From a virus (Duplodnaviria; Heunggongvirae; Uroviricota; Caudoviricetes), in the IMG/VR virus record IMGVR_UViG_2778261667_000016: DNA of 5,661 nt. One strand, 5' to 3'. Numbering within the stretch: position 1 is the stretch's first letter; each line of letters starts with the position of its first letter. Position numbers and translations under genes: made by a program. The notes under the pieces are model-generated. The model did not search any database, had not been told where the DNA came from, and saw nothing but the letters and a program-made list of their open reading frames with translations. This document shows positions 204-5,661 of the stretch, one piece after another.

Positions 204-491
204 TTAACGGATAAACAGCCAGACCAGCAGACACGCCACCGCGGGCACCGCAAAATCCATCAGACTTGCCACATCCCATGCACGAGGATCAAAACCGCCC
301 CACCACGGCATGTTAATCCGCTTGCCATGCCCGAACATTTCAATCCAGCGATATTCTGCCTGGGTGTGTTCACGCGCAATGAAGAACGTACAACCGGCTA
401 TCGCCCCGTAAGCCCAGTTTCCGGTAAAAAGACCAATCAGTAGCTGCGCAGCCACAGCACAAAGTGCATGAAGGAAAGGTGTTATATCCAT
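204..491 (-). CDS. Hypothetical small integral membrane protein (about 95 aa, two predicted TM helices)
   Basis: ATG at 489-491 is preceded by AAAGGAGGAG (strong SD) and lies 13 nt downstream of the previous stop. The ORF-track start at 515 is a GTG that would overlap the upstream gene and is less likely. Hydrophobic segments FLHALCAVAAQLLIGLF/WAYGAIAGCTFFIA near the N-terminus and DFAVPAVACLLVWLFI at the C-terminus. Stop TAA at 204-206. I recognise no family. Confidence 0.6.
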   Translation of the reverse strand: MDITPFLHALCAVAAQLLIGLFTGNWAYGAIAGCTFFIAREHTQAEYRWIEMFGHGKRINMPWWGGFDPRAWDVASLMDFAVPAVACLLVWLFIR

Positions 492-504
492 TACTCCTCC
501 TTTA

Positions 505-1206
505 TCAGATATCACTTCGGGAAGTTGATAACAACTTTAATTCTGACTCAAGTTCATCAACTCTTTCAGTCAGTTTCTGGATATGGTGAATCAGTGGAAC
601 AACCAGACGTTCGTACATTACACCTTCGGCAACAAGGCCATTGCTGGAAATAGCTTCAGGAGCATCATCTTCGTTAGCTGGTCGCCAGTGTACAAACTGA
701 GGAGCAATTTCTCCCACTTCCTCGGCAATCAATCCGTAGAATCCCCAGTCACTCCTGTCATTTTCGCATTGCGACCTGTACCACACAGGGCGCATCCTGA
801 AAATGAGATCGGCGTGCTCTGAATCTATTGTCTCTACTGAATGTTTATAGCGAATAGACGATGTTGACCGCAGTACAGACGAAATTGCAGGGTCAGGATT
901 AAGATAAAGATTTGCCGCCGCTGTAGTCGTGCCCAATTCCCATAAATAAAACGCTTCACGGCCAGTCAGCGGGTAAAAATCTCCACCATAACGACCGCTT
1001 TCCAGATCGTTCACTTCCAGTTTGTTTTTCAGCTTATTATCAACTTCAGTTTTTGTGTATCTGGTGCTGATATCCTGCTTTGCACTGGTCATATCAGTCT
1101 GAAGCGTTGATACTTTTCCGTTAATTGAGGAAATATCTTCCTTAGTTTTACTGACATCTCCCTTTAGCGTGGTGATATCTCCTGGAATTACTGTCGATGT
1201 AGCCAT
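505..1206 (-). CDS. Small fiber-like protein (233 aa) with C-terminal intramolecular chaperone domain (peptidase S74 / chaperone-of-endosialidase type)
   Basis: ATG at 1204-1206 is preceded by GGGAGA (SD) 4 nt upstream. The N-terminal ~70 aa are a polar coiled-coil-like repeat (DITTLKGDVSKTKEDISSINGKVSTLQTDMTSAKQDISTRYTKTEVDNKL). Residues ~116-225 (nt 532-861) follow the intramolecular-chaperone pattern as I recall it: SSIRYKHSVETI (consensus S-D-x-R-x-K-x-N-I), LIFRMRPVWYR, GFYGLIAEEVGEIAPQFV (consensus G-F-I-A-Q-E-V), and YERLVVPLIHHIQKLTERVDELESEL (C-terminal helix). Stop TGA at 505-507. Confidence 0.75.
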   Translation of the reverse strand: MATSTVIPGDITTLKGDVSKTKEDISSINGKVSTLQTDMTSAKQDISTRYTKTEVDNKLKNKLEVNDLESGRYGGDFYPLTGREAFYLWELGTTTAAANLYLNPDPAISSVLRSTSSIRYKHSVETIDSEHADLIFRMRPVWYRSQCENDRSDWGFYGLIAEEVGEIAPQFVHWRPANEDDAPEAISSNGLVAEGVMYERLVVPLIHHIQKLTERVDELESELKLLSTSRSDI

Positions 1207-1215
1207 TTGTCTCCC

Positions 1216-1497
1216 TCACATCCAGCCACGAAGTTGATGCTCAACAACAACCGCGTATTTATCGAATATTGACGATTTTTTTGCATCATTAATGATGCGC
1301 ACGTTTACAAAATATCCGTCTTCCTTAACACATACCGGTTCGCCATCTTCAGTCAGTTCTCCGGTTTCTTTGTACACGTTACCTATCACGTCAATAAGAA
1401 TATTATCCTGCATCGACTCGTCATCATAATAGCCAGTGCTCTCCATAAAGGCCGAAAAGTCGGCCCTGTCTGCAAATTTGAGTGTTAAATCTTTCAT
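1216..1497 (-). CDS. Hypothetical small acidic protein (93 aa), translationally coupled to stf
   Basis: ATG at 1495-1497 overlaps the stf stop at 1497-1499 (TAATG on the coding strand). Stop TGA at 1216-1218, only 9 nt before the next gene. The product is acidic (many D/E), with no signal peptide or transmembrane segment. I recognise no family with confidence and it does not resemble lambda Tfa as I recall it. Confidence 0.6.
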   Translation of the reverse strand: MKDLTLKFADRADFSAFMESTGYYDDESMQDNILIDVIGNVYKETGELTEDGEPVCVKEDGYFVNVRIINDAKKSSIFDKYAVVVEHQLRGWM

Positions 1498-3878
1498 TAG
1501 ATTGACTCCCCCACCTGAGCATCAGTCAATGCCTTGTGCCATATTCTGAAATTCCTGACATGACCAAATAAATGACGTAACCCGGCAGTAGTCTGGCCTC
1601 CAATACGGATAATTGCGGTGTTCTGAATACAGGACCATGTGGTTTTTGTTTCGCTGGATATACGCCCGTTACTTACTGAGCACGTAGACTGATCTGACTT
1701 TACACGCATCCCCATAACCATTTTTTCAAGCGATGCGTTTTCGTTTACCCGTCTGTTAGCTCCTCCAATATCGCAATAAGGAAATCCGTCGTAATCTGTT
1801 GAACGACCGAAGCCAAGAATAATAGCCGCTCCGGTTTGATGACCGCCGGTGTCAAAAACACGCGGAGCTGCATTTGGCGTTTTATACCAGTTCTTATGTA
1901 CCTCACAAAGAACCGTAAAAGGAAGATTATAAAGATTATTCTTAATGGGAACTGTAACTATATCGCTTGCGCGGGTCGCCGCCGTCGTTCCTGATATAAT
2001 AAAAGATGATACACAAGGCCCATTTTCTACTTGTGGGGTGGCCAGATAAATATAGTCACCAGATACGGTTGCCCCGCCCTGCTTAGGAGAATACTGTATC
2101 TGAGAACCTATTTTTAACTCCCCATCAATTGCCTGAATTGTTGCCTCTGCAAAAATCCATCCGGTAGCTTCGTCCTTTCTGACTCTCGCAGTAATCCTTG
2201 AGGCAGCACCGCCTGTCATATTAATTTCAAGCGTTTGTGTATCAATATACGCATCACCAAGAAAAGTTGTTGCGCTACCGTCATATTTATCAAACCGGAT
2301 ACGCAACCTTACCTGCAGTTCTGTTTTAAAACGACATGAGGTTGTCACGTGTTTATTATCGCCTGAGACATCAACTGACTTTGTTGCAGCAATTGATGCC
2401 ATATTAATGGCTGAGGTTTGCCCAATCAGAGAATCGTTGCAGACAAACTTTCCATAGGTAAAACCAAAACTATCCGTCCCTGTTTCGGGCACATCCATAT
2501 TTGACGATCGCCCCCAACTGGCAGGGTTTTCCGAATTGAGCATGTAGTTTGTTCTTTGCCCCTCAATAAGCAGGCCATCACGTTCAAACCGTGGCTCGTC
2601 AATGGCAGCCTCTGTCAGCACACCAGATTTATTAATGTAAGTTGCTTTTGATGCGCGTTTAAACTTTACAACCTTATCGCCAGGCATCGTTATTTCATCA
2701 TCACCAATAACAATCTTTTTATATGACGGCGAAAAGCCCGTAATCATATCCAGTGAATCGTTAAACGGTATCCACACATCGGGAAGCGGCTGCAATACTT
2801 GTTTATACGGCTCCGCAGCCTGGCTTGCATACTCTCTGGCTGCGTCTTCACTTGCTTTTGCAGCCGTCTGGCTTGCAGCGGATGCTTTCGCCGAGTTAGC
2901 CGCCGCAGTCTCGCTCGCCTTTGCGTTGGTTTCACTGGTTTTTGCAGCTTTTTGACTGTTGGCTGATGCAGTGGCAAAAGCAGCCGCCGCGCTTGCAGAG
3001 CCAGCTGCAGCACTCTCGCTTTCGGCTGCTGCATCCTGACTGCTTTTCGCCGCAGTTTCACTGGCTTTGGCATTCGTTTCGCTGGTTTTCGCTGCCGTCT
3101 GGCTGGACTTTGCGTTGGTTTCGCTGGTTTTTGCAGCTTTTTGACTGTTGGCTGATGCAGTGGCAGAAGAAGCCGCCGCACTTGCAGAACCAGCTGCGGC
3201 ACTCTCGCTTTGGGCCGCTGCATCCTGGCTGTTTTTCGCCGCAGTTTCACTGGCTTTGGCATTCGTTTCGCTGGTTTTCGCTGCCGTCTGGCTGGACTTT
3301 GCGTTGGTTTCGCTCGTCTTTGCGGCTGTCTCGCTGTTTTTCGCATTGGTTTCTGATTTTTTGGCTGCTGTCGCGGAGTTTGCCGATGCAGTCTGTGAGG
3401 TCGCTGCCGCCTGTGCGCTGTTAGCTGCATTCGTTTCTGAGGTTTTCGCCGCGTTCTTCGATGATGCCGCTGCAGTTTCGGATTTCTTTGCCGCCGCTGC
3501 GCTCTGAGAGGCGGCTTCGGCGTTGCGTGCCGCTTCTTCCACCATTTCCTGAAAACGGCGCAATGCCTCCGGCATGACATCATCTTCCGTCATGGCACCG
3601 AGAAAATCATTCAGCGTCCCCGGACTGGAACCTTCATAGACGGTAATGGTCCCGGCATGTGAAGGCGGAAAACCTTCAACCAGCAGGGTGACGCTGTACT
3701 GGCCATACTCAACATCCATGCTGTAACGCCCGGCTTCATCCGGATTTTCAGAGGCCACTGTGTTGACCAGTACCGTGGTGCTGTTACGCTTTGCCTTCAG
3801 TTGAATAGTGCAGTTCTGTATTGGTTTTCCCGCACCATCTTTCAGCACACCTGAGATTTTTACTGCTGCCATATCCAC
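1497..3878 (-). CDS. stf: Side tail fiber protein, chimeric: lambda-Stf-like N-terminal anchor, Ala/Ser/Thr heptad-repeat shaft, non-lambda C-terminal putative lectin-like receptor-binding region
   Basis: 793-aa ORF. GGAG lies 7 nt upstream of ATG 3876-3878; an alternative ATG at 3870-3872 would give MAAVKISG. The first ~110 residues (AVKISGVLKDG.GKP.QNCTIQLKA.RNSTTV.VNTV.SENPDEAGRYSMDVEYGQYSV...GFPPSHAGTITVYE...PGTLNDFL.AMTEDD) match the N-terminus of lambda Stf as I recall it. Residues ~113-355 are AAKTSET-type heptads. The C-terminal ~440 aa contain segments such as EGQRTNYMLNSENPASW and a terminal LRHLFGHVRNFRIWHKALTDAQV that resemble concanavalin-A-like/LamG jelly-roll domains. Stop TAA at 1497-1499. 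Confidence 0.88.
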   Translation of the reverse strand: MDMAAVKISGVLKDGAGKPIQNCTIQLKAKRNSTTVLVNTVASENPDEAGRYSMDVEYGQYSVTLLVEGFPPSHAGTITVYEGSSPGTLNDFLGAMTEDDVMPEALRRFQEMVEEAARNAEAASQSAAAAKKSETAAASSKNAAKTSETNAANSAQAAATSQTASANSATAAKKSETNAKNSETAAKTSETNAKSSQTAAKTSETNAKASETAAKNSQDAAAQSESAAAGSASAAASSATASANSQKAAKTSETNAKSSQTAAKTSETNAKASETAAKSSQDAAAESESAAAGSASAAAAFATASANSQKAAKTSETNAKASETAAANSAKASAASQTAAKASEDAAREYASQAAEPYKQVLQPLPDVWIPFNDSLDMITGFSPSYKKIVIGDDEITMPGDKVVKFKRASKATYINKSGVLTEAAIDEPRFERDGLLIEGQRTNYMLNSENPASWGRSSNMDVPETGTDSFGFTYGKFVCNDSLIGQTSAINMASIAATKSVDVSGDNKHVTTSCRFKTELQVRLRIRFDKYDGSATTFLGDAYIDTQTLEINMTGGAASRITARVRKDEATGWIFAEATIQAIDGELKIGSQIQYSPKQGGATVSGDYIYLATPQVENGPCVSSFIISGTTAATRASDIVTVPIKNNLYNLPFTVLCEVHKNWYKTPNAAPRVFDTGGHQTGAAIILGFGRSTDYDGFPYCDIGGANRRVNENASLEKMVMGMRVKSDQSTCSVSNGRISSETKTTWSCIQNTAIIRIGGQTTAGLRHLFGHVRNFRIWHKALTDAQVGESI
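2814..3542. repeat. Array of degenerate 21-bp (heptad-coding) repeats inside stf
   Basis: Recurring DNA motifs (tttcgctggtttt, tttggcattcgtttc, gcagcttttt, etc.) with 21-bp periodicity. They translate in the stf frame to about 35 Ala/Ser/Thr-rich heptads (AAKTSET, NAKSSQT, NAKASET, AAAGSAS ...). Confidence 0.85.
2917..3326. repeat. Near-perfect 189-bp direct tandem duplication (about 2.1 copies) within the stf shaft repeats
   Basis: The string ggtttttgcagctttttgactgttggctgatgcagtggca occurs with gcagc at 2944 and again at 3133, an offset of 189 bp. The flanking sequence aligns over roughly 2917-3116 versus 3106-3315 with only scattered mismatches. At protein level stf residues 185-247 and 248-310 are 63-aa blocks differing at a handful of positions. 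Confidence 0.9.
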
Positions 3879-3883
3879 TCCAC

Positions 3884-3909
3884 AAAAAAGCCCGCCTGAA
3901 CCGGCGGGC
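3884..3909 (-). terminator. Rho-independent terminator between lom and stf
   Basis: GC-rich inverted repeat gcccgcc(3890-3896)/ggcgggc(3903-3909) with 6-nt loop. On the minus-strand transcript it is followed by UUUUUU (A-run 3884-3889 on the plus strand). It lies 28-53 nt downstream of the lom stop and is immediately followed by the stf ribosome-binding site. Confidence 0.75.
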
Positions 3910-3936
3910 TGTCATAACACTGTGTTACCTGGCTAA

Positions 3937-4536
3937 TCAGAATTTATAACCGACACCAACGATGAAACCGTCAGTGCGCCAGTCGCCACTGCCGGAACCT
4001 TCATAAGCAATATCAATGGCCACGGATTCGGTCGGGTTAAACTGCACGCCAGCCCCCCATGCCAGAGACGTGTCGCTGTGGCGACCGTCATCACTTCCGG
4101 TCAGCACATCGTGCGTTTTCCCCTTGTTGTCAGTTACGCGGATATAATCTCCGGAGAAAGTCGAAACACGGCTGTAAGCCATACCCGCCATCGCATACGC
4201 GCTGAACCATTCATTCACGCGCACAGACGGCCCCGCCATCACGCTGAACCAGCGGTTACGCACGGAATCTTCATGCCAGCGGGTATCGCTGTAATGGGTA
4301 AGCTGGCGATTCTTGTCTCCTGCATAGCTGAATGACGTCACCAGCCCCAGTGTGTCCGTAAACTCATAACGGTATTTCACGTTAATCCCGTTAAGATCAT
4401 CGCTGCCGGGAACGTTCGTCGAGGCATGAAGATACCCCGCGCTCAGCGTGGACTGATGTTCAGATGCCCATGCAGGCGCACCGGATACGGCCAGACAGAT
4501 GGCTGCGGAAAAAATGGCGGCATAAAGTTTACGCAT
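3937..4536 (-). CDS. lom: Lom/Ail/PagC/OmpX-family outer membrane beta-barrel protein (lambda Lom homolog)
   Basis: 199-aa ORF with ATG at 4534-4536 and SD-like GAGG 5 nt upstream. N-terminal signal peptide [25 protein letters not shown]-terminal segment [25 protein letters not shown] is the conserved last strand of lambda Lom and the Ail/Lom family, ending in the aromatic residue typical of outer-membrane barrels. Position between J and stf matches lambda. Confidence 0.92.
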
Positions 4537-4558: not shown

Positions 4559-4584
4559 ATAAAAAAGGCACCATTTCTGGTGCC
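4559..4584 (-). terminator. Rho-independent terminator between J and lom
   Basis: Inverted repeat ggcacca(4567-4573)/tggtgcc(4578-4584) with 4-nt loop. On the minus-strand transcript the hairpin is followed directly by a U-run (A-run on the plus strand at 4561-4566). It lies 22-47 nt downstream of the J stop codon. Confidence 0.7.
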
Positions 4585-4605
4585 CTTATATGGGTTATAA
4601 CAATT

Positions 4606-5661
4606 TCAACGAATACTGATGCCGGAAGCGGCTTTTTTGGTCACAATCACCGTACAGTCGGTGATATTACCTGCCCACTGATTGCCTTTATGGAAAACCT
4701 TAAACTCCAGAGTGACGCTTCCCCTGCCACTCGGCATATCAATAACCGCACTGTAGCTACCGGGAATGGCCCCTTTAGTTTCTCTGGATGCGATTAATAC
4801 ACCGTTTTTGCGAACTTCAAAACCATAACCCGTGTATCTTGTACCTCCCGGGTTATTACCACTTCCCGGATCGCTATACGCTATTCCGTTAAAGATAATG
4901 GGCGGAATAATGATTTGACGGTCAAAGTTATGATCATCGCTGATGGTGACTGTAACCGTCCCGTTTGGTGTTTCCGTGTTACCCCACGTACCAGCCTGTT
5001 TCGGAAATGATTTGGATACAGCTTTAACGAAGTCACCTCTGACCTGAGTCGCCTCCAGCATGCCCTTAATCGTACAGTTCTGGTTAATCGTGACATTGTT
5101 GAGCGTTCCTGAGTTCGCATTCACACTACCACTGATATCCGCATTTTTAGCGGTCAGCTTTCCGTCTGATGTCAGGGAAAATACCGGAGGACTGCCACCG
5201 CTGGTAATGGTGGGGGCTGTCAGGCGCTTCAGGAACACGTCGTTCATGAATATCTGGTTGCCCTGCGCCACAAACATCGGCGTTTCATTCCCGTTTGCCG
5301 GGTCAATAAACGCGATACGGTTAGCGGCAACCAGAAACTGGCTCAGCTTGCCTTCCTCCGTGTCCTCCATGCTGAGGCCAATACCCGCGACATAATGTTT
5401 GCCGTCTTTGGTCTGCTCAATTTTGACGCCCCACATGGCATTCCATTTATCGTTAGCGTCCTTCCACTCTTTCGAAAACTCATCCAGTCTGCTGGCGTTA
5501 TCCTCCGTCAGATCAACTTTTTCCAGCAGCTCTTTACCGAGATGGGATTCGGTTATCTTGCCTTTGAAAAAATCCAGGTAACCTTCCGCATCATCGCTCG
5601 CCCGACCGACGGCCTCCACGAATGCCGATTTGCCAACGGTGTTCACACTGCGGATATAAAA
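4606..5661 (-). CDS. J: Host specificity / central tail fiber protein J, C-terminal part (partial; N-terminus lies beyond the window edge)
   Basis: Minus-strand reading frame stays open through position 5661, so the M at 5646 in the ORF track is an internal GTG codon, not the real start. Stop TGA at 4606-4608. Sits immediately upstream of lom and stf exactly as in the lambda gene order J-lom-stf, and the proximal part resembles the distal region of lambda gpJ as far as I recall it. Confidence 0.8.

Follow-up and report, generated by a model that had tools for sequence, protein, structure and literature searches.

Why does the rod of a tail fibre contain two adjacent blocks of nine heptads that are almost identical to each other, while the heptads around them have diverged? 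This question is raised by a stretch of 5,661 nucleotides from a virus of the Caudoviricetes (the window), in which a 189-bp unit is present in tandem within a fibre gene. A preliminary description of this DNA had taken the pair for a duplication that is recent in comparison with the heptads around it. We consider it very probable that an in-frame duplication of nine rod heptads is old and that the units are subject to rare exchange; the array of the window most likely went through a contraction followed by a re-duplication.

The repeat lies in the gene at 1497-3872, which according to its profile and structure matches can be assigned as a lambda-type side tail fibre gene (stf). The gene, its parts and its upstream neighbours are:

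4606-5661, minus strand: C-terminal part of J (PF09327, PF12421), from the ORF list and Pfam
3937-4536, minus strand: lom (Ail/Lom, E = 2e-120), from the ORF list and Pfam
1497-3872, minus strand: stf, the side tail fibre gene, 791 residues from the ATG at 3872, from the ORF list
3477-3866, minus strand: N-terminal collar/attachment domain (PfN, PF08400), residues 5-134 in the 793-residue numbering, from Pfam and PDB entry 9e7m
2811-3524, minus strand: uninterrupted array of 34 heptads (the rod; PCoil or proximal coiled coil), 238 residues, 119-356 in the 793-residue numbering
1500-2810, minus strand: C-terminal, distal half of the fibre, presumably receptor-binding

The ORF list also gives an alternative start, GTG at 3878, which yields 793 residues. 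The N-terminus of Stf matches the Pfam family phage_tail_N (PF08400) with E = 1.1e-65 and 220 bits against a cutoff of 26.6, and the protein aligns end to end with phrog_1419, annotated 'tail protein' (residues 2-791 against 1-793 of 793). It also matches the 94-residue 'Tail fiber protein' chain of 9e7m (E = 1.2e-48). This chain agrees with the part of the side fibre, residues 1-94 of its N-terminal domain, that was resolved in the study on Ur-lambda and that forms the collar docking on the tail tip (PMC12617516). J, lom and stf are arranged in this order on one strand, with stf downstream of J and lom as in the lambdoid tail module, and phage 2G7b and E. coli prophages share this order. Across its entire length the window gene is 99.0% identical to that of E. 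coli Rb-50, and the fibre genes of the phages 2G7b, HannyBb and Tritos reach 95-96% identity. The genes after stf code for a 93-residue protein of unknown function (phrog_1361) and a 233-residue protein with a Peptidase_S74 domain. No tfa gene was found directly downstream of stf, and the window contains no match to the Tfa family; CB209 and phage 2G7b have fragmentary tfa annotations further downstream, a pseudogene remnant in the former and two short ORFs in the latter. Within the distal half, residues 435-635 match the NCBIfam domain 'phage head spike fiber', and an AlphaFold2 model of residues 357-791, computed on a shallow alignment of close homologues, has a mean pLDDT of 31, too low for assigning a fold.

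The rod, which joins the N-terminal collar to the distal, presumably receptor-binding part, follows the heptad pattern S-x-x-A-A-x-x, with serine at position 1 in 31 and alanine at position 5 in 30 of the 34 heptads. Alanine (88 of 238 residues, 37%) and serine (46 of 238, 19%) dominate its composition, leucine, isoleucine, valine and methionine are absent, and the strongest period is 7.0. Since the core positions are occupied by alanine and serine and not by large hydrophobic residues, the rod is an atypical coiled coil. It is predicted to be alpha-helical: an AlphaFold2 monomer of residues 95-363 is all helix (7-149 and 160-268 of the model) with a mean pLDDT of 73. The modelled monomer bends back on itself, a fold-back that was likewise met by the authors of the Ur-lambda study with AlphaFold3 (PMC12617516). 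A parallel trimeric state of the rod is presumed by analogy with the fibres described in that study and in PMC3368898. A sequence search of the PDB for solved structures of such heptads gave none; the matches were confined to the N-terminal domain and to Klebsiella phage depolymerases (7vyv, 7lzj), where the weak matches fall in a helical bundle near the N-terminus that the cryo-EM map does not show. PF08400, the 34-heptad array, the helical model and the literature all agree with the earlier placement of the duplication inside the fibre shaft and in frame.

The elements of the duplication itself are:

3126-3314, minus strand: repeat unit 1, 63 codons or nine heptads, residues 189-251
2937-3125, minus strand: repeat unit 2, 63 codons or nine heptads, residues 252-314
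2916-2936, minus strand: extra heptad SETNAKA, a partial third copy in which 18 of 21 nucleotides match the first heptad of the unit
3044-3125 (equal to 3233-3314), minus strand: longest exact run common to both units, 82 nt, unit positions 1-82
2976-2978, minus strand: TTT (Phe) codon at heptad position 1 of unit 2, a position held by serine in 31 of 34 heptads

Tandem Repeats Finder reports a single array at 2901-3327 with a period of 189, 2.3 copies, 92% matches, no indels and a score of 728, and the match string at a shift of 189 is near-perfect between about 2918-3134 and 3107-3323; the interval first proposed, 2917-3326, was right to within a few bases. Beyond the extra heptad SETNAKA the repeat decays. 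The two units, which keep the heptad register on the minus strand, differ at 9 of 189 nucleotides (95.2% identity). Five of these changes are synonymous and four change an amino acid (4 of 63), and all fall between unit positions 83 and 149. The change to the Phe codon (Ser301Phe), C to T at unit position 149 (window nucleotide 2977), is private to the window among the 136 units compared. Might any two stretches of such a low-complexity rod look as similar? For the 136 other non-overlapping in-register pairs of nine-heptad blocks the mean identity is 49.1% (sd 4.3%, maximum 59.3%), and the unit pair lies about 11 standard deviations above this background of the same array; the units are far more alike than other heptad blocks are.

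The length of the region was compared in a sample of about 70 homologous loci and 5,426 complete E. coli genomes; all frequencies are estimates from ranked or spread samples and from counts at a coverage of at least 80%, not a full tabulation. In about 1,000 of the 5,426 genomes the match extends over 80% or more of the array query. For the first query there were 1,002 such genomes, and all sampled full-length rows measured 998-1001 bp; for the second there were 1,003, and the best 60 rows all measured 678 bp. Both values are the length of a two-copy array. Among the 120 best protein clusters, 108 have 790 or 791 residues, and one cluster has 4,554 members. Because about 1,000 complete genomes are two-copy, the phrog_1419 profile has 793 residues and the clusters 790 or 791, two copies are the norm of this family. 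The copy number is stable, with an estimated fraction of less than 1% of complete genomes departing from two copies. This dominance of more than 99% could reflect selection for that length or just a low rearrangement rate. A hypervariable repeat or contingency locus was considered and rejected, as the copy number is nearly invariant (about 1,000 two-copy genomes, four one-copy strains).

Departures from two copies do occur. One-copy alleles were found in CB209, MSB1_4I, AVS0655 and FFFEB2, all complete or chromosome-level genomes, and in phage IdasGreatGrand, whereas phage 2G7b has two units. Three distinct alleles of 854 residues have three copies; they come only from three draft assemblies, one of them GCA_016108505.1, and the best 60 matches of a three-copy query in complete genomes were all two-copy. 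Since the one- and three-copy homologues differ by exactly 189 bp, expansion and contraction take place, as had been predicted for an in-frame repeat of this kind. Further variants lack one or four heptads and are likewise rare (under 1%). The array lengths seen are 25, 30, 33, 34 and 43 heptads, none of them out of register, and homologues differ in length by multiples of seven residues.

The usual two-copy array consists of an 'alpha' unit followed by a 'beta' unit. In 61 of the 65 two-copy alleles the units differ at 21-39 nucleotides (about 84% identity), and the common allele has 19 synonymous and 7 non-synonymous codon differences in the stf frame. This predominance of synonymous differences suggests purifying selection on both copies. 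Judged from the alleles, the duplication is old and almost fixed in this fibre family. In the three-copy alleles two alpha units precede the beta unit (alpha-alpha-beta), and these two alpha units are identical or almost identical. Near-identical units in two-copy alleles were met only in the window and in the loci L002 (Rb-50), L009 and L014, with 9, 3, 9 and 8 differences, respectively. The window carries a minority beta-beta haplotype, with two units of the second type, and the near-identity of its units is probably the product of a secondary homogenising event. The assumed recency must be divided: the pair is far younger than the surrounding degenerate heptads (95.2% against 49.1% identity), but the two-copy state as such is not recent.

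The origin of this haplotype is indicated by unit sites 3 and 9. In the window, L002, L009 and L014, unit 2 has 'CC' at these sites, a combination otherwise seen only in first units and in single-copy units; in 54 of the 65 two-copy alleles unit 2 has 'TT'. The single unit of the one-copy alleles L007 and L008 is identical to unit 2 of L002, L009 and L014 and differs by 1 nt from unit 2 of the window. Altogether the one-copy alleles show three kinds of single unit, namely hybrid (alpha then beta), beta-like and pure alpha, which points to independent events with different breakpoints. As single units are hybrid alpha/beta or pure alpha, the one-copy alleles are derived from two-copy arrays. 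Unit positions 10-77, within the exact run of 82 nt, are identical in every unit compared, and the crossover behind the hybrid alleles presumably falls there. The array and the remainder of the gene are combined in different ways: the exact 1,000 nt downstream of the array in the window also occur with alpha-beta arrays (L025, L027), and a beta-beta array is also found on an unrelated C-terminal domain (L014, 476 differences in 1,000). Homologous recombination between lambda stf and prophage stf genes has been demonstrated experimentally (PMC3945230).

We therefore propose the following course of events. An ancestral alpha-beta duplication would be old and would have become almost fixed. Unequal homologous recombination or slippage between the units would occasionally generate one-copy or three-copy alleles, and gene conversion between them would generate patchwork units. 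In the lineage of the window, a crossover between alpha and beta would have collapsed the array to one hybrid unit, which would then have been duplicated again to give beta-beta. Finally, one unit would have gained a tract of 35 nt with five changes, and the private Ser-to-Phe change would have arisen. The repeat, its register, the allele series and the mosaic patterns are observed; the order of events and recombination as their mechanism we infer.

Alternatively, intragenic gene conversion at constant copy number could have produced the same array, if most of unit 1 was replaced by sequence from unit 2 (beta) and the first few bases of unit 2 by sequence from unit 1. Conversion tracts between units do occur, since many two-copy alleles have alpha patches in unit 2 and beta patches in unit 1 (patterns such as 'aabbbbaaaa...' and 'bbaaaaaaaaabbb...'), and the five differences between unit 1 of the window and unit 1 of L002 are clustered in a tract-like manner at unit positions 83-117. 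This pathway would, however, need at least two tracts in opposite directions to place CC at sites 3 and 9 in both units and beta elsewhere, whereas L007/L008 have this very hybrid unit in single copy, and with the same 'post' haplotype in the flank. Because L007 and L008 carry exactly this single hybrid unit, re-duplication is the more economical reading; the allele network of about 70 loci is reticulate, and in it contraction plus re-duplication is not cleanly separable from two conversion events. We regard conversion at constant copy number as possible, though unlikely.

The literal reading of the preliminary description, a first-time duplication of a one-copy gene in this genome or its immediate ancestor, agrees with units that are 95% identical on a background of 49% and with the existence of one-copy genes. 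It is nevertheless very improbable. Two copies are ancestral and dominant, and in most alleles the units are 28-33 nt apart, mostly by synonymous changes; the single units of the one-copy alleles are hybrid or pure alpha, which marks these alleles as derived; and beta-beta arrays occur in at least four independent assemblies and on two different C-terminal domains. A recent duplication survives only as the re-duplication step of the course of events proposed above.

An error of assembly, either in the second copy of the window or in the one- and three-copy variants of its relatives, deserves hardly any credence. The exact repeat of 82 nt could tangle small-k assembly graphs, draft assemblies are the source of most one- and three-copy proteins, and if an assembler collapsed the array within the identical positions 10-77, the resulting hybrid unit would look just like that of a real crossover. 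Against this, Rb-50, a complete genome, and independent contigs have the two-copy beta-beta array, one-copy arrays of three unit types occur in four complete or chromosome-level strains and a complete phage genome, and the three-copy alleles are three different sequences, an outcome not expected of a single artefact. The collapse in short-read genomes about which the preliminary description had warned would mainly be a risk with small k-mers or short reads, as the longest exact run is only 82 nt.

A function of the repeat at the level of DNA or RNA, or a product encoded on the other strand, is next to negligible as an explanation: long ORFs do run through the repeat in other frames and on the plus strand (2921-3424 and 3148-3507 on the plus strand, 2744-3583 on the minus strand), but such ORFs are to be expected in a GC-rich repeat that codes for much Ala and Ser, an Rfam scan of the window matched no family, promoter and terminator scans were at or below chance with a weak 5-pair stem as the sole terminator-like site in the repeat, most alpha/beta differences are silent when read in the stf frame (19 synonymous, 7 not), and the stf heptad register is kept in all length variants. 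A gene on the opposite strand was likewise rejected, as substitutions and length variants follow the stf frame.

What does a change in copy number mean for the fibre? The unit is a whole number of heptads, so its gain or loss disturbs neither the reading frame nor the register of the coiled coil and changes only the length of the rod. Alpha-helical coiled coils usually rise by about 0.148 nm per residue, and each unit of 63 residues would thus add about 9.3 nm; for arrays with one, two and three copies we estimate roughly 26, 35 and 45 nm. It is conceivable, though doubtful, that the unit acts as a length-tuning cassette. Selection among rare one-, two- and three-copy alleles would then fit the reach of the side fibre to how thick the O-antigen or capsule layer of the host is, and the conserved, repeated rod would serve as a homology platform for swaps of the receptor-binding C-terminus. 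The locus provides a concrete case in which the length of a fibre rod changes by whole heptad blocks through recombination between internal repeats, and in which a piece of the rod is exchanged between fibres whose receptor-binding ends differ. For quality control of annotations and assemblies, the classes of 728, 791 and 854 residues are real alleles and not necessarily errors. For fibre engineering, lambda-type side fibres could be shortened, lengthened or grafted at the unit boundaries, where the register is naturally kept. The significance is modest; length-variable fibre rods have already been described, and no new kind of system is involved.

A comparable behaviour is known from the streptococcal M protein, which contains tandem in-register heptad blocks and in which homologous recombination between blocks generates size variants while the coiled coil stays intact. 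It is an unrelated protein of an unrelated organism, and its size variants are frequent and thought to be immune-driven, in contrast to the near-invariant copy number found here. Among phage fibres, the PCoil of the EHEC prophage fibres EPclA/B is a trimeric alpha-helical rod according to CD, SEC-MALLS and electron microscopy, and the PCoils of homologues are longer or shorter by multiples of seven residues (Ghosh et al. 2012, PMC3368898). In the sections of that article used here, the PCoil resembles the rod of the window in following directly after PfN (PF08400), in being rich in alanine and serine with a periodicity of seven residues and in having almost no leucine or isoleucine; the same sections give the length differences but do not describe a duplicated block of 63 residues or an allele series. 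EPclA/B continue into collagen triple helices and PfC (PMC3368898), whereas Stf of the window continues into a non-collagen half with the 'head spike fiber' domain. For Ur-lambda the differences likewise concern the distal part, which in lambda is gp37-like and binds OmpC with the help of Tfa; Stf of the window has a different C-terminal half, and no tfa lies in the window. The proximal parts agree: in Ur-lambda Stf the N-domain is followed by a linker and by a proximal coiled coil that spans residues 102-393 (Wang et al. 2025, PMC12617516), and this fibre shares with Stf of the window a homologous collar (9e7m), the gene position after J and lom and the same order of collar, short linker, long helical rod and distal part.

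The near-identical tandem repeat lies in a fibre gene (stf). All sizeable genes of the window are encoded on the minus strand and make up the final part of a lambdoid tail module:

4606-5661, minus strand: tail-tip protein J, C-terminus (Phage_Tail_Tip and Ig_GpJ_C)
3937-4536, minus strand: lom (Ail_Lom, E = 2e-120)
1497-3872, minus strand: fibre gene stf, 791 aa (PF08400, phrog_1419)
3126-3314, minus strand: repeat unit 1, exactly nine heptads
2937-3125, minus strand: repeat unit 2, exactly nine heptads
2916-2936, minus strand: extra heptad continuing the repeat
1216-1497, minus strand: 93-aa ORF (phrog_1361; without Pfam or NCBIfam match)
505-1206, minus strand: 'tail fiber domain' protein, 233 aa, with a Peptidase_S74 domain (intramolecular chaperone)
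204-515, minus strand: 103-aa hydrophobic ORF (phrog_1443), closing the fibre cluster

The fibre matches the 'prophage tail fibre N-terminal' domain PF08400 at its N-terminus (E = 1e-65), the collar domain of the Ur-lambda side fibre (PDB 9e7m) with residues 3-95 (E = 1e-48) and the phrog_1419 profile of 793 residues from end to end. Its gene is 99.0% identical to one in E. coli Rb-50; the fibre genes of three sequenced phages (2G7b, HannyBb and Tritos) are 95-96% identical to it. Together these matches identify it as a lambda-type side tail fibre (Stf). In the C-terminal half, residues 435-635 (1973-2575) score E = 8e-14 against the 'GTA/phage head spike fiber' domain of NCBIfam, and the last ~40 residues contain the motif NFRIWHKALT, which we take to be reminiscent of lectin-like jelly-roll domains.

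Several features of the neighbouring genes were also recorded. At position 1497 the start of the 93-aa ORF runs into the stop codon of stf, and the ORF was found in all related loci examined; since it occupies the place of tfa in lambda, it may be an assembly factor. The Peptidase_S74 protein has 233 aa in the window, in Rb-50 and in two one-copy loci (L007 and L008), and 346 aa in most relatives (CB209, 2G7b, L004-L006). Its match to the 346-aa family phrog_4563 is limited to the initial ~32 residues, and the remainder matches the C-terminus of phrog_3299; it gives the impression of another mosaic, fibre-like gene adjoining stf. The 103-aa ORF is kept in related prophages. On either side of lom, on the minus strand, a terminator-like GC-rich hairpin precedes a run of T: one separates J from lom (4564-4587), the second separates lom from the start of stf (3889-3910). 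This fits lom as a separately terminated insert ('moron'), stf then needing read-through or a promoter of its own.

Fibre residues 119-356 (coding strand, 793-aa numbering) form 34 heptads without interruption, with 37% Ala, 19% Ser and no Leu, Ile, Val or Met; heptad position 1 is Ser in 31 and position 5 Ala in 30 of them. Modelled as a monomer with AlphaFold2, residues 95-363 are helical throughout (pLDDT 73), with a fold-back hairpin that is a monomer artefact also reported for AlphaFold3 by the Ur-lambda authors (PMC12617516). In Ur-lambda Stf, a linker joins the collar (1-91) to a proximal coiled coil (102-393), which is followed by a hinge and then the distal part (PMC12617516). In EHEC prophage fibres, an Ala/Ser-rich 'PCoil' follows the same N-domain as in the window's fibre and is a trimeric alpha-helical rod by CD, SEC-MALLS and rotary-shadowing EM (PMC3368898). 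The preliminary description therefore rightly placed the repeat in the fibre shaft. Codon 2976-2978 of unit 2 is TTT (Phe) at the core position that holds Ser in 31 of the 34 heptads. Of 136 units compared across 69 loci, only this one has the C-to-T change behind it (unit position 149, nt 2977). Possible origins are a sequencing error and, in a decaying prophage, a destabilising mutation.

Tandem Repeats Finder reported a single array at 2901-3327 with a period of 189, 2.3 copies, 92% matches and zero indels. Units 1 and 2 differ at 9 of 189 nucleotides (five synonymous and four amino-acid changes), all at unit positions 83-149, and the longest exact run common to both is 82 nt. Across the 136 other in-register nine-heptad pairs of the array, mean identity is 49.1 ± 4.3% and the highest value 59.3%; the claimed duplication is thus real, far above chance and much closer than any other pairing of heptad blocks. 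Alternative-frame ORFs of 119-279 aa cross the repeat at 2744-3583 (minus), 2921-3424 (plus) and 3148-3507 (plus). Substitutions and length variants keep to the frame of stf, so these ORFs are most likely by-products of GC-rich Ala/Ser codon repeats.

The two-copy state is an old, nearly fixed trait of the fibre family. Among the best 120 protein clusters, 108 are of 790 or 791 aa, including one of 4,554 sequences; three are of 854 aa (+63) and four of 727/728 aa (-63). Every full-length row sampled from the ~1,000 array-carrying genomes had the two-copy span. For comparison at the DNA level, the window and 68 other loci were used, comprising 65 two-copy alleles (window included), three one-copy and one three-copy allele. 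Of the 65 two-copy alleles, 61 have 21-39 nt differences between their units (mode 30-32), the usual first ('alpha') and second ('beta') units being ~84% identical. Codon differences in the common allele are synonymous in 19 cases and non-synonymous in 7, which suggests that the duplication is ancient and that purifying selection acts on both copies. The preliminary description, which took the duplication as recent relative to the surrounding degenerate heptads, holds in its essentials with two qualifications: the duplication is old in the family, the near-identity in the window stemming from secondary homogenisation within a minority haplotype, and the locus is stable.

Near-identical units occur in only four of the 65 two-copy alleles: the window (9 differences), Rb-50 (L002; 3), L009 (9) and L014 (8). 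Both units of these alleles are beta-like, and at unit sites 3 and 9 both show 'CC', the alpha state; in unit 2 these sites read 'TT' in 54 of the 65 and CC in these four only. The one-copy loci L007 and L008 have the same downstream-array haplotype, and their single unit is identical to unit 2 of L002, L009 and L014 and 1 nt from that of the window. Three of the window's nine differences (positions 126, 135 and 145) are common to all beta-beta alleles, and one is the private change at position 149. The other five cluster at 83-117, are absent from Rb-50 and are shared with L009, which makes them look like an imported tract. The simplest history would be a crossover between alpha and beta inside the identical positions 10-77 that collapsed the array to one hybrid unit, a new duplication of this unit, and minor changes thereafter. 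Two gene-conversion tracts in opposite directions could produce the same beta-beta result, an alternative that we consider less likely.

Expansion and contraction, as proposed in the preliminary description, do occur, and like exchange they are real but rare. A one-copy query (489 nt) was covered to at least 80% in only nine complete genomes. Five of these records, representing the strains MSB1_4I, AVS0655, CB209 and FFFEB2, have a single unit, and the three kinds found (hybrid, beta-like and pure alpha) imply that one-copy alleles arose in independent events with different breakpoints. Two of the four further records were inspected: E. coli 203740 (also ATCC 43886) has 33 heptads, one being deleted within unit 1, and E. 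coli EFF60 has 30, with four deleted, its gene being interrupted close to an IS200-family element; both deletions are in register. The sequenced phage IdasGreatGrand has a one-copy fibre of 731 aa. Three-copy alleles (alpha-alpha-beta), in which units 1 and 2 are identical or almost identical, come from three different draft assemblies and are mutually distinct in sequence; no three-copy array was present in complete genomes among the best 60 matches to a three-copy query. The observed series is thus 25, 30, 33, 34 and 43 heptads, the block being in-frame and in-register, with mosaic units present. A hypervariable locus is contradicted by ~1,000 complete genomes with the two-copy array versus four one-copy strains; the locus is stable. 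Assembly collapse, also raised beforehand, is a plausible concern for small k-mers only, because the longest exact repeat is 82 nt, and it fails to account for one-copy alleles in complete genomes.

The window's exact downstream 1,000 nt, encoding C-terminal sequence, is also paired with alpha-beta arrays in two loci (L025 and L027), and in L014 the beta-beta array is joined to an unrelated C-terminal domain. Rod array and C-terminal half thus assort independently, the array moving between genetic backgrounds. At a coverage of at least 80%, the array region is found in ~1,000 of 5,426 complete E. coli genomes, the whole fibre gene in just 556. Copy number would be changed by unequal homologous recombination or slippage between units. 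Each unit should add ~9.3 nm to a heptad array of ~35 nm, and the dominance of two copies may mean that fibre reach is under selection or that such events are infrequent. Lambda stf has been shown experimentally to recombine homologously with prophage stf genes (PMC3945230). PCoil lengths vary by multiples of seven residues (PMC3368898), and the length-variable heptad rod as a general phenomenon is already on record. The window's repeat is a well-documented new example of a feature type already described.
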